Below, in pieces: positions 20,791 through 24,990 of a DNA stretch of 41,825 nt. The notes beneath the pieces were generated by a model. The model saw nothing but the letters and a program-made list of their open reading frames with translations, did no database searches and was not told where the DNA came from. This stretch comes from an uncultured Verrucomicrobiae bacterium (GTDB taxonomy: Bacteria; Verrucomicrobiota; Verrucomicrobiia; Limisphaerales; JAFGQR01). The stretch's first letter is position 1. Each line of letters opens with the position of its first letter. The position numbers and the translations under genes are program-made. Location of the stretch: contig CAWBHS010000097.1 of NCBI GenBank assembly GCA_963788655.1, positions 1 through 41,825 of the forward strand, written 5' to 3'.

Positions 20791-21899
20791 TCATGGTGAA
20801 CCCGCTGAACCGGTTTGCGTTTGCGGCGCGCAGCACAGGCCGCGGATGCCTTCGAGGTTCAGCCGGAAAAAGCGCATCGTGTTCGTGCGCGACACGGCGA
20901 AAACGTTCGTGCCGCCCGTGTCCACCGGCTGCCAGTCCGCTGTTTTGAGGTTCGCCAAATTTCGGGTGAACCGATGATGCCGAGGATATCACGCCCAACC
21001 ACCACGTGGGAATTGTTGATCGCCGATGGTACGGTATCATTGCCACCTAGGTTGGGAAGTTCCACGGCGCTGTTGCTGAAAACGATAAAACCGCGCCGTG
21101 TCGGTGCTCCGGCCGCGCCGACGATCACTCCCTGGTTGTTCATTGCCGTTGGATAACCGGAGCTGGCTCCCCAGGCGAATAGTCCTCCCACATCCGTTAG
21201 CCCTGATGCGGCGGTGTAACGGAAGGTGTGCGAGGTGGTGTCGTCGGGCCAATCGTGAGTAACGCCGTTGGTTGTGTTTCCGCCGCCTGCCACCCAGCCC
21301 AGGTCGTTGATCGCAAAGCCTGAACTGTAAGTTCCCCCTGGGAGCGTGCCGAGCGCCTCGATACCCACCCCGGGGGTGTAACGGAATCCCATATTGGGCT
21401 CGTGGTAGTCAGCGGAATTGTCCGAAGTATCACTTTTGCCAGTGACTTGGCCTTGGTTGTTAAATGCAAACACGAAGGTGTTGGACCCACCGAGCGTCCC
21501 AATATCCACCAATCCCTCGTTGTCATTGTAAACAAAGCCATGCAAGTAGCGGTTCTCAAGGTCGTACCAGTACGTCCCAGCCACCTGGCCCTGATTATTG
21601 ATTAACTCCCCGTCGTCCCAACTGCAATAGATTCCCAGCCACTCGATCTTCTGGCCCGATTTCAGGCGGAACACTTCAGCCATGCCCAATTCGTCGATCC
21701 AAATCGTCCCCGCCATATCGCCGAAATCGTTGATCGAGATCTGGGCCGAATCACCGAGCAGCGGCGTGAGGTCTATCGCACTGTAGCGCGGTTGGGCCCA
21801 GGCCTGCCCTGCGGACAGCCAGCCGAGCAGAGAGAGAGAGAGAGAGAGAGAGAACGAATCCGTGGGTTTCTTTGAATTGTTTTCATAGGCGACCATCAC
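20791..21899 (-). pseudogene. HAF-repeat (DUF3466-like) secreted protein, frameshifted/internally deleted into the shared C-terminal tail
   Basis: Signal peptide; INDFGDMAG, INNQGQVAG, LVDIGTLGGS, LGTLPGGTYSSGFAINDLG repeats. Near 20950 it switches frame to ANLKTADWQPVDTGGTNVFAVSRTNTMRFFRLNLEGIRGLCCAPQ...*. Confidence 0.75.
21829..21852. repeat. (AG)12 dinucleotide tract within the signal-peptide coding region
   Basis: Counted directly; encodes SLSLSLSL on the minus strand. Confidence 0.9.
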
Positions 21900-22549
21900 A
21901 GCTATTTGTTAACCTTCCAACGTCCTAACCGCGATCTCAGCAGGAATGGCCATTGGTGTCAACATTATTTTTAAAAAATGTGATTTTTTATTTGGCCTTT
22001 AAATCCTGGATTAAAGAGCGCTGGGGCAGCGGCGTCAGCGCCAGTCGGATAATAAGTCGCTGCCGACGTGAGGAGGCTCATTCTTGCCGTGAAACGTGCG
22101 ATGTTCCAGGAATATCAGATCGTTACAGAAGGAAAGGAAGGGCACGAAGAGTTGAGGGGAAAACGGTGTGGACAGTAGTGGTCGCCGTGGTCACCCAATC
22201 GCGAACAGGTTACTGGTAAACCGAATCAATGTTTCACCTGGCCTGGCGCCTTCGTTCTCTTTGTTTCCTGCTGTTGAATTGAATTGTCACGGCTTGAGCC
22301 GTATCCATTCGTTTAAAGCACCACGGATTGCAGGTATGTGGTTTGTCAACGGGAATGTTTCGAAAAGGATTCTTTTTGCGGGTAGAGTGAACCTGCGGCT
22401 GGGAGGATAGGGCTCTGCAGGAGTGCAACCCGAGCGCCCAGTCGTCCGTGGATTGCGGATGCATCCACTCCCGGCGCTGCCTGGTGGTGGCGCCGGGAGA
22501 TTGCTTTAGGGGGATGCTTGAGCAAGCCACGGTCCGAAGCGATAAACTC

Positions 22550-23813
22550 ATCGTAGAGCATACGCTTAAGCCAAAGTGGCGGCGGGGTGGGAGTTGACGG
22601 GATATACTGTTTGTTTGGGTCCAGGACATAAGTACGGGTGGTTTTGAGCCTCTGATAGATTTCCTCCCGATAGGTCTCGCGGGGCTTGCCCAGAGATTGG
22701 AGTCCCTGCTGGCCCACCGAACCGATCATTTTGCGTGACTTTGCCGACCAGGCGCGCATCCATTTGCTCCAGCGGGGTCCAGCGGCCCATCATCAGATAC
22801 CAGACGGCGACGGTGAGTTTGCGGGCGATGGCGGCGACCGCCAGGTTGACGCTGCCCCTGGCGGCCAGCAGCTTCTTGCCCCAGCGGGCCAGGGGAGTTT
22901 TACCGGAGCGCAAGATGGCCTGGGCGCCCTCGATAAGCAGACGAGCGCAGGAGCTTGTGGCCGTGACCGCCGATGCCGCCGCTCCACTCCGAGTCTCCAC
23001 TGTCGTCAAAGGCGGGGTTGAGCCCGACATACTTGACGAGTTTCTTGGGGTGGGCGAAGCGCTGGATGTCCCCGACAAAAGCGCCCAGGGCGAAGGCGAC
23101 CACTTCCCGTATGCCGCACAGCCGCACGAGGCGAGAGCAGTTGGGGTTCGGCCAGCACTTCCTGGGCGATGAGGCTGCGCCAGTGCTGGCGTTGCTGGTC
23201 GGCATGGCGCAGTTCGGCCAGCAGGATCTCGATGACCTGCCACTGACGAGGGGACCACTCCCGTGCCTGGCGCAGTCGCCCGCTCGACCTCCCCGATTCG
23301 GGTCCAGCGAGTGCCCGGCTGGAGGCGCACGCCATTGTCGCTGAGATAGGAGCGCAGCCGCGCCTGGATCTGGGTGGTGCGTTTGGTGGCCTTGGTGTAA
23401 GCGTGGAACCAGTCACGCCATTCCTGGGTCTTGGGGTCGGGCACCCAGACCTCTTTGGCGGTGCCGGCCAGGTAGGCTTTGCCAATGCGCACGGCGCTGA
23501 GCTTGTCATTGTTGGCGTGCGCCTCCTTGAGCTTGCCCAACTGGCAACTCTCCAAGACCTTGGCCCGGCGCTCGACGGCCGCCAGGGTGCGGACCACCTG
23601 GAAGCTGTTGCCCGAAGCTTCCAGCGCGAACAGGTCTTGGGCCGTGGTGTGTTTCTTGGCCCAGCTGGTGAGCTGAGCCATCGGCACCTTGTTGAATACT
23701 TTTTCCACCACGGCGGCGGCCGGCGTAGCGCCGCACAGGACCGCCGCGGTGAAGCTGTCCGGGTGAGCGTCAAAACCAATCACCCGCTCGACAGAGTTTG
23801 CTTTGTCGTTCAT
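22550..23813 (-). CDS. IS110 family transposase/recombinase (several frameshifts; 3' end approximate)
   Basis: RuvC-like DEDD part VIGFDAH, ALEASGN, NNDKLSA. Tnp domain CGIREVVAFALGAFVGDIQRFAHPKKLVKYVGLNPAFDDSG, G-H-K-LLR..LIEGAQ, AVAAIARKLTVAVWYLM. Confidence 0.9.
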
Positions 23814-23831
23814 TCTATTTCCTATCGGTTA

Positions 23832-24032
23832 TGCAGACGGACGGAAACGGGTCAGGCGCTTACATGCACTCAGGTATGCGGGGCGGTCCCCATGTAGGTG
23901 CTTTGCGCCGGTGCTCATTCACGGAAACGGAGAGTGACTCCTAAGTTCATCCTCGAGCATCTCCCGTAAGCCCACCTGCGGGTTAGCTGACCAACAGGTC
24001 CTTAAGGTGACACCGCTTCCGTCCGTTCTGCA
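23832..24032 (-). ncRNA. Putative IS110 bridge-RNA-like structured non-coding RNA
   Basis: Long enclosing stem (23832-23854 with 24008-24032) and two stem/internal-loop/hairpin modules. One loop holds CATACCTGAG, matching the predicted donor junction; another holds TTTCCGTGA, resembling the target flank AATCCGCGA. Confidence 0.6.
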
Positions 24033-24299
24033 ACTGCGTCCTGAGTGTTCCAGGGCGCCCCGTTGACAAAACTCATACCCTCGCGGATTGACACGGATGG
24101 AAGAGGATTTAGCTGCAATAGGGAGCACCCATCCGTGCAATCCAGTAATCCGTGGTCAGTCCTTCGAGTTTTCTAGCGAACGTTTTCAGGGAACTGCCGA
24201 TGACCGTCAATAGCGAAGTTGTTTGGGGTTTCCTTGTGTTGTTCGGGTAACCGTTGCCGGGTGGCGGCGGGAGTTTTCCTGTACGCGCGAGGAGCCAAG

Positions 24300-24990
24300 C
24301 GAAAAAACAAGAAATCGAGTGTCCGCCGTGCTGGACGCGCATGGGTGCTGGTCCGCTCTGCCGGGGTTCATCACGGGAGTGACAGAGTTCCGGACGCACG
24401 TGGCGGCCATTGTCAAACAGGCCCAGGTGCAAAGCAGCAAGACCGGCGCGACTGCCGAGAAGGCGCTGGCGTTGCACAAGTTGGGCGACACGGCTTACGA
24501 GGTCGCCGCCGCGGTATATGCCTGTGCGGTGGCCACCGGCAATTCAGAACTGGCTGGGCGCATCAAGCACTCGTGGACTGAGGTTACCCAGGGCCGTGAT
24601 CCGGTGGTGGTGGCCCGTTGCCAGAACATTCACGCCGCCGCCACGGAGTATTTGGCGTCGTTAGGCAACTACGGCGTCACCGCGGCCAAGTTGACGGCGC
24701 TGGAAGAGCAGCTTGAGACGTTTCAGACGTTGCAGCCGAAGCCCCGCACCAACCGGACCGCGATGCACAGCGCGACGCAGGAGTTGCGAAAAGCCTTTGA
24801 CGCGGCGGATGGAGTGTTGGACCGGCAGTTGGACCGGTTGATAGTGCAGTTCAAAATCGCGGAGCCGGATTTTTGCAATCAATTCGCGGCGGCGCGGCGC
24901 CTGGTGAATCTGCCAGGGGTGCGGACAACTGCCCAAAACGTGGTGGCTGTGGACACGGCTCCGGCCGAAGAACTGCCGAAGGCGGCGTGA
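24300..24990 (+). CDS. Hypothetical all-helical protein (true start unclear, possibly damaged)
   Basis: Plausible coding body ...TGATAEK...GNSELA...YGVTAAKL...PR...AT..L...D..LDRQLD.LI..F....PDF...F.AAR; no clear ATG in frame. Confidence 0.65.

Follow-up and report, generated by a model that had tools for sequence, protein, structure and literature searches.

Most IS110-family elements are predicted to encode bridge or seek RNAs, a class known since 2024, so that the finding of a further one is in itself unsurprising. For IS621, the main texts of Durrant et al. 2024 (PMC11208160) and Hiraizumi et al. 2024 (PMC11208158) describe a CT core which is included in all four pairings. As regards the IS1111-type seekRNAs, the complement of the top strand comes first according to the main text of Siddiquee et al. 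2024 (PMC11187229), and this order is reversed in the IS110-type ISEc21. The same text places the non-coding region downstream in the IS1111 types and upstream in the IS110 types, with few exceptions such as ISMtsp17, and these upstream exceptions are mentioned there without a description of their RNAs; it also attributes subterminal inverted repeats and transposases of 330-350 aa to the IS1111 types (PMC11187229). Besides, promoters split across the two ends are described for both IS110 and IS1111 elements in the main texts of PMC11208160 and PMC11187229. Finally, ISPpu9 and ISPpu10 of Pseudomonas putida are presented in PMC12288879 as members of the IS110 family that lie within repetitive extragenic palindromes, ISPpu9 having in addition a separable small-RNA module (ssr9), downstream of its transposase gene, which is also found alone.

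The locus considered here belongs to the window, that is, the whole stretch of 41,825 nucleotides that was analysed, which is contig C97 of the source assembly G000 (8.96 Mb, 115 contigs, 86% complete). Within it, the region 23833-24031 very probably encodes the guide RNA of an insertion sequence of the IS110 family (DEDD/serine recombinase) found widely among Verrucomicrobiota. The features on which this reading is built are collected in Table 1.

Table 1. Positions of the insertion sequence, its RNA modules, its flanks and a second transposase copy (window coordinates unless a contig is named)
Feature	Position	Strand	Remarks
IS110-family insertion sequence	22332..24081	-	1750 bp; starts A-GGGTATG, ends CATACCT; ends repeated in 40 unique relatives
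Left terminal inverted repeat GGGTATGAGTTTTGTCAAC	24062..24080	-	16/19 complementary to the right end; -10-like TATGAG at 24077..24072
Right terminal inverted repeat GTTGACAAACCACATACCT	22332..22350	-	-35 hexamer TTGACA at 22349..22344
Bridge/seek RNA body	23833..24031	-	closing stem 24031..24015 with 23848..23833; first arm 24007..23974; target and donor modules inside
Target-binding module	23912..23959	-	outer stem TGCTCG/TGAGCA, inner hairpin GGAG/CTCC; flank covariation in relatives
Target-loop 5' strand (longer guide)	23953..23942	-	between the TGCTCG stem and the GGAG hairpin
Target-loop 3' strand GTTTCCGTGAA	23928..23918	-	same sense as the left flank plus G-A
Donor-binding module	23855..23909	-	outer stem GGCGC/GCGCC, inner stem GCACC/G-GTGC, hairpin TGGG..CCCG
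Donor-loop 5' strand (C)TACA(T)	23897..23892	-	invariant in homologues
Donor-loop 3' strand CATACCTGAG	23878..23869	-	equals right end + G + A-G of left end, 10/10
Transposase pseudogene	22580..23813	-	ATG at 23813; homology to a 411-aa relative ends at 22580; four frame changes
Conserved 37-nt hairpin motif, right non-coding end	22402..22438	-	GCTC..TGCA-CTCC-TGCA..GAGC, then CCTATCCTCC
Left flank, REP-like imperfect palindrome of ATCCGYG-type units	24082..24156	-	element within its 3' arm
Right flank, last unit of the REP-like palindrome (GCAATCCGTGGT)	22320..22331	-	read from the sequence
Second transposase copy	G000:C110 (L002 1311-2495)	minus strand of locus	80% identical; both ends truncated; ends near codon 345; upstream RNA absent

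The element, its ends and its relatives

Read on the minus strand, the element runs as A-GGGTATGAGTTTTGTCAAC from 24081 and finishes as GTTGACAAACCACATACCT at 22332. The left junction joins AATCCGCGA to GGGTATG (24089..24074) and the right junction joins CATACCT to GCAATCCGTGG (22338..22321), a single G, at 24082 and 22331, being common to the target and the element. The inverted repeats are conserved in the relatives and, with 16 complementary positions out of 19 bp, reach the 7-17 bp that characterise the IS1111 type. In total, 40 unique elements were parsed, 33 of them with both ends, after removal of six loci that represented the same place fetched twice. GA precedes the GGGTATG left end in 36 of the 40, and a G follows the CATACCY right end in 33 out of 33, the next base on the right side being T, C, A or G and changing along with the guide.

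How these ends meet the target can be read from genome G360, in which two copies each lie between ..CATCYGTG-A and G-TTCATCTGCGG. The uninterrupted repeats of the same genome all read ATCYGYG-TTCATCTGCGG (6/6), with neither the A nor any extra base, and a reversed-pattern control gave 0. Therefore, as far as the paralogous repeats of this one genome can stand for empty sites, the predicted crossover shares one G with the target, and the A is supplied by the element as its first base. The same pattern gave no match in genome G387, and no orthologous empty site was found for either flank in the same-genus genome G057. These data bear on the GA core that the initial annotation had put forward. 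An IS621-type bridge RNA with GA as the core dinucleotide of both target and donor would account for the GA in front of most left ends and for the GA found in the 3' strands of both loops, but it is made very improbable by the lack of the A in the uninterrupted repeats, by the right-side base after the G, which varies with the guide, and by the lack of covariation under the IS621-type strand assignment (see below). Only the G of this core is thus retained, together with the predicted circle junction (right end, G, A, left end), with which both the empty sites and the comparison of ends agree. In preference to a GA dinucleotide, the one-G crossover is used hereafter; it offers a clear case of one base shared between donor and target.

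Two other readings of the junctions were considered and rejected. A GY core dinucleotide was dropped, as both sides match in just 7 of 13 elements. The 7-bp CAATCCG present at both junctions was not kept as a duplication or long core either: uninterrupted hairpins on contigs C2 and C57 of the source assembly show the tandem-unit structure of the target, and the flank repeats are imperfect in the relatives. The left-flank palindrome consists of ACCACGGATT..CACGGATGG, a loop, and CCATCCGTG-TCAATCCGCG, and continues on the other side of the element as CAATCCGTGGT at 22330..22320. In the source assembly, CAATCCG occurs in 3835 copies versus 1164 expected from base composition; full hairpins like the flank of the element are rare, with three pattern matches, those on C2 and C57 being uninterrupted and of this type.

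The transposase gene is split into ORF pieces at 22566-23813, 23006-23779, 22900-23205 and 22346-22759. The IS116/IS110/IS902 transposase domain (PF02371) matches the third of them at 4.9e-12 and an intact 411-aa relative, P0089, at 6.9e-14, and this relative aligns to the window from 23813 to 22580 by tblastn. The Tnp domain can be aligned with the IS621 transposase (8wt6), weakly (E 8e-4) and over that domain exclusively. In the transposase alignment A1, which displays the motif GLNPAFDDSG, the serine of the SG pair is invariant together with its glycine (S271-G272) and is aligned to the ESG of 8wt6. For the N-terminal RuvC-like DEDD domain (PF01548), P0089 scores 19.4 bits (E 9.6e-4, residues 12-158) against a cut-off of 29, and a precomputed match exists for 4 of the best 120 homologues listed. 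In IS110-family enzymes, the second aspartate follows the first by three residues. Near the third acidic residue, alignment A1 has N101, D103, K104, S106 and A107 as invariant columns, and the place of the second aspartate seems, in this alignment, to hold an invariant serine.

Among 8000 scored candidates, 2809 transposase homologues were found with E<=0.001, and the best 120 are mostly 411-421 aa long. The 291-nt left end is matched in 26 of 401 same-order genomes, including the source genome, with 73-100% identity, and the named records bearing the transposase are mainly Verrucomicrobiota MAGs (Pedosphaera, Limisphaerales, Verrucomicrobiales). A tblastn search against plasmids gave 291 records, mostly named just 'IS110 family' and below 30% identity among the matches listed, and inspection of the best plasmid match for element ends revealed no clear ones. 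It can also be mentioned that a few transposase-bearing bins are labelled Acidobacteria or Proteobacteria. Five of these loci (L064, L070, L072, L088 and L092), with 70-85% protein identity, come from bins labelled beta- or alphaproteobacterium, Acidobacteriaceae or Candidatus Acidoferrum, labels which may reflect either inter-phylum transfer or mis-binned contigs.

The right non-coding end was searched for guide-like variation among the relatives, and none was detected. It harbours a nearly invariant 37-nt hairpin motif, which the 1.73-1.75-kb elements of one subgroup carry and the 1.54-kb elements lack. Its 29-nt core is found in 22 of the 401 genomes of the order (reversed control: 0), its TGCG..CGCA variants are compensatory, and an Rfam scan of 21800-24600 gave no match on it. 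This motif would be a passenger module. Separately, one copy of it was noticed outside any insertion sequence in the source genome (G000:C67, L003 1501-1537). In four metatranscriptome runs, the bin containing the motif reaches a summed contig depth of 43-1317, compared to tens elsewhere, with many unrelated loose ends.

A conserved predicted RNA with a target module and a donor module

The consensus fold of 32 distinct left ends (MAFFT/RNAalifold) contains 55 pairs in 10 helices. A closing stem of 15 pairs encloses a first arm and two modules, and in each module an internal loop separates the outer stem from an inner hairpin. Compensatory changes on both sides are seen in 19 of the 55 pairs. 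Paired cells amount to 96.4%, versus 92.8% in column shuffles (0 of 500 reach the observed value), and fall to 32-46% when the partners are slid by 1-3 columns. The transposase-sense strand is favoured, because G-U pairs (131 cells) make more cells canonical there: 1690 of 1754, against 1583 of 1754 in antisense. Folding energies alone leave the strand undecided, since the 267-nt leader folds better than shuffles on both strands (z -3.1 and -3.5), values that do not tell them apart; the single-sequence fold of the 203-nt window RNA reaches -88.7 kcal/mol (z -4.25). The Rfam scan of 21800-24600 (E<=1) returned no match on the RNA region, and a weak match to Xoo8 within the transposase gene, with 17 bits for 90 needed, was discarded.

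This comparative folding shows that the left non-coding end encodes, on the transposase strand, a conserved predicted RNA of about 200 nt, multi-branched and with two internal-loop modules. What the initial annotation had read from the letters is upheld in part. The strings that it quoted are all found where it had located them, its limits (23832-24032) lie just outside the closing stem, the covariation-supported fold includes the GGGG/CCCC and GGAG/CTCC hairpins together with the stems around them, the consensus has the target-binding module before the donor-binding module as proposed, and its choice of the minus strand is backed by the canonical cells.

In the target module, the 5' strand of the loop is the most variable segment of the entire left end, with 8-9 variable nt. 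Its reverse complement matches the right flank of its own element at a mean of 6.04/8 (27 distinct guide-flank pairs with 24 distinct guides), compared to 4.09/8 for 694 cross pairs, and none of 20000 permutations reaches this value, which holds equally when each guide contributes a single pair. The match is complete (8/8) in L036, L040, L043, L046 and L070, and reaches 7/8 in six others. In the same line, the 3' strand resembles its own left flank in the same sense at 6.41/9 versus 5.44/9 for cross pairs (0/20000 permutations), with 9/9 in L039 and 8/9 in L043 and L045. The test leaves out L006 and L094, which were unparsed by the pattern, and L044 has no left flank; since the relatives are kin, all permutation figures overstate independence. 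When the register is left free (n=28), the signals persist both for the 5' strand with the right flank (6.11 vs 4.51, 0/2000) and for the 3' strand with the left flank (6.32 vs 5.50, 0/2000). By contrast, the IS621-type assignment gives no signal in these 28 pairs, be it for the 5' strand in the same sense as the left flank (1464 of 2000 permutations reach the observed value) or for the 3' strand as complement of the right flank (1113 of 2000). Some cross-talk is detected between the 3' strand and the right flank (0/2000) and between the reverse complement of the 5' strand and the left flank (3/2000), because the two flanks are neighbouring tandem-repeat units and hence alike. Finally, the target module is kept in four distant relatives whose transposases are 37-44% identical, and their guides fit as follows: L093, 10/10 on the left and 6/8 on the right; L099, 7/9 on the right; L101, 7/7 on the left; L102, 7/8 on the left.

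These comparisons show the 5' strand as the putative complement of the top strand to the right of the element, from the invariant G onwards, and the 3' strand as a repeat of the ..TCYGYG left flank that ends with G-A. The initial annotation had rightly placed this loop as the target loop and had noted that its long matches fall 3' in each loop, which may depart from the layout of IS621, a remark with which the lack of signal for IS621-type pairing agrees; the longer guide on the 5' strand had been overlooked. It could be argued that guide and flanks are alike because the elements copied pieces of the surrounding repeat array, by gene conversion or sequence capture, rather than because an RNA selected the site, and the targets are indeed tandem repeats with similar left and right flanks. 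Nevertheless, the matching segments coincide exactly with both strands of a single internal loop within a conserved fold, one in sense and the other in antisense, both in register with the insertion point, and the main texts of PMC11208160 and PMC11187229 report that such an arrangement was experimentally shown to guide insertion in related elements. Copying is consequently considered as extremely improbable, and selection of the site by the RNA is retained as the explanation of the match.

The donor module follows the same geometry as the target module, with a same-sense match on its 3' strand. The 10-nt match of CATACCTGAG to the predicted junction, which had been pointed out from the letters, is confirmed as the sole copy in the window, versus 0.02 expected by chance, and this strand is near-invariant in 32 homologues. 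Single-copy substitutions in L052, L083 and L084 are unmatched in their ends. In the four distant relatives, taken in the order L093, L099, L101 and L102, the right ends are CATAACT, CATGCCA, CATGCCC and CATGCCT, and the corresponding donor strands of the RNA are AATAACT, AATGCCT, TATGCCT and AATGCCT; the left end stays GGTATG in all of them except L101, where it is GGGATG. Since the right end and the RNA change together in these distant relatives, the donor 3' strand appears to follow the right end, in the same sense. The alignments thus show it as a predicted repeat of the joined ends, that is, CATACCY followed by the shared G and by one or two initial left-end bases. As to the donor 5' strand, pairing with the left end, with the right end or via wobble pairs was searched for, and no convincing register was found. 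Its CUACAU resembles the right-end bases -10 to -5, and could pair with the left-end bases 5-10.

Taken together, the covariation of the structure, of the target loop and of the donor loop argues for the identification of a bridge or seek RNA of the IS110 family, as the initial annotation had suggested, and the variation it had proposed to look for among homologues is present, the loops covarying with ends and flanks in the relatives. The region sits immediately upstream of the ATG at 23813 and both of its strands outfold shuffles, two features that a cis-acting leader governing the translation or stability of the transposase, without any DNA guiding, would share. Of such a leader, though, one would expect neither a hypervariable loop that tracks the flanks of each element nor a second loop whose sequence is that of the joined ends and changes along with the right end, and only a very slight chance is given to this explanation in comparison with a guide RNA.

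State of this copy and proposed mechanism

The guides of this copy do not fit its present site. Its 5' strand predicts GTTCATCC, the actual right flank being GCAATCCG, which corresponds to 4/8 for a cross-pair mean of 4.1/8. Its 3' strand matches its own left flank at 6/9, as in unrelated pairs; the likeness that had been remarked between TTTCCGTGA (23927..23919) and this flank therefore falls at chance level, shuffled guide-flank pairs averaging 5.4/9, a figure this high because all targets share TCYGYGA. The 13-nt predicted target has two exact matches in the assembly, one of them in a repeat array on C95. DNA and protein searches for other copies in the source assembly revealed a single one, on C110, which is truncated and without RNA, and no intact copy. 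Both breakpoints of this C110 copy adjoin ATCCGYG-type units (..GCATCCGCGA upstream and AATCCGTGGATTGC downstream), as if it had been trimmed by recombination at target-like repeats.

Given the four frameshifts, the absence of an intact copy from the assembly and guides that fit the flanks at chance level, the copy under study is most likely inactive. The four frame changes of its transposase share one direction (codon phase 2>1>0>2>1), and systematic indel error would fit them as well as decay. The copy might still be mobile, with its ends and RNA intact, either because the transposase is provided in trans by a copy missing in the assembly or because the frameshifts are assembly errors. Several points go in this direction: copies in other genomes share 89-90% identity with the RNA region, whose fold is kept, neither inverted repeat is broken, the completeness of the genome is 86%, and the frame changes are of the kind that systematic errors produce. 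Against this, the neighbouring ORFs are intact and long (400-1065 aa), which would require the errors to cluster in the transposase gene, the sole other copy of the assembly is truncated and lacks the RNA, and the guides mismatch the present site, so that mobility is regarded as unlikely. With a dead copy as the preferred reading, the locus illustrates that a well-preserved guide RNA can outlast the decay of the transposase gene in one copy, and the region deserves to be labelled in annotation as the non-coding RNA of a defective insertion sequence.

Regarding expression, 30 of 33 elements have TTGACA (with at most one mismatch) at a fixed distance of 12 nt from the right end, and TATGAG or TATGTG occupies the corresponding place of the left end in 33 of 33. 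In the joined ends, TTGACA and TATGAG would be separated by 17 nt (12 right-end bases, G, A and GGG, counted from the sequence), the -10-like TATGAG scoring only 4/6. Of the words sampled from the element, at most 23% are found in any one public sequencing run. Assembled contigs of relatives span most of the element in four metatranscriptome runs. Three of these runs, from three different studies, contain contigs of 150-209 nt which map to 23862-24070 and carry 4-10 differences, and no circle junction was seen in the contigs. As assembled contigs of RNA libraries can show neither strand, ends nor RNA origin, they give a weak hint that the region is transcribed.

If it behaves like IS621, ISEc11 and ISEc21, the element would excise as a circle, whose joined ends would set TTGACA 17 nt from TATGAG and could thereby switch on the transcription of the RNA and the transposase. 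In the recombinase-bound RNA, the second module would then pair with the circle junction and the first one with a target ..TCYGYG^NNNNNNNN in tandem ATCCGYG repeats, insertion taking place by strand exchange at the single shared G.

Comparison with described IS110 and IS1111 elements

As described in PMC12288879, ISPpu9 and ISPpu10 share with the present element the insertion of an IS110-family sequence into palindromic repeats, in other hosts and with other sequences. The right-end hairpin motif also resembles the ssr9 module of ISPpu9 (PMC12288879).

With IS621, as presented in the main texts of PMC11208160 and PMC11208158, the verrucomicrobial elements have in common a left-end location of the RNA ahead of the recombinase gene, two internal loops in the order target then donor with one segment per DNA strand in each loop, REP-like repeats as targets, and a promoter split between the ends; a Tnp domain with the SG serine can be added to this list. 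They differ from the IS621 of these texts in the one shared G instead of the CT core, in terminal inverted repeats of 19 bp versus 2-3 bp, in the long closing stem that encloses the whole RNA, and in a transposase of 411-421 aa versus 326 (PMC11208160, PMC11208158).

According to the main text of PMC11187229, the IS1111-type seekRNAs of ISEc11, ISPa11 and ISKpn4 also carry the complement of the top strand 5' of the bottom-strand match, and long inverted repeats at the ends and a GL-P----SG motif in the transposase are further points shared with the IS1111 types. Thus, the predicted strand order is IS1111-like and not IS621-like. Unlike in the IS1111 types of that text, both RNA modules lie upstream of the transposase gene rather than downstream, and the transposase has 411-421 aa instead of 330-350 (PMC11187229). 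The upstream position of the non-coding region is shared with the IS110-type ISEc21, whose region yields a short transposase-bound RNA, whereas in ISEc21 the bottom-strand match comes first and long inverted repeats are lacking (PMC11187229). The IS110-type traits are therefore mixed here: the upstream region of 267 nt is present, yet the terminal inverted repeats extend over 19 bp (16/19).

Literature searches at the level of main texts returned no description of this verrucomicrobial lineage. It can tentatively be proposed, with rather less than even confidence, that these elements form an uncharacterised lineage that mixes both archetypes, with a left-end RNA, an IS1111-type order, a near-palindromic donor arising from the long terminal inverted repeats, a one-G crossover, and 3' strands that read into the first base of the element. 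If so, the 3' loop strands would be a built-in match to the product and not to the substrate, and at least 24 natural guide variants with their sites could provide a rule set for a new programmable recombinase. The roughly 40 elements, with 24 distinct target guides and six empty sites, constitute a natural data set in this respect. More broadly, an upstream-encoded RNA with the strand order so far reported for the downstream-encoded IS1111 RNAs bears on the kinship of the two groups.
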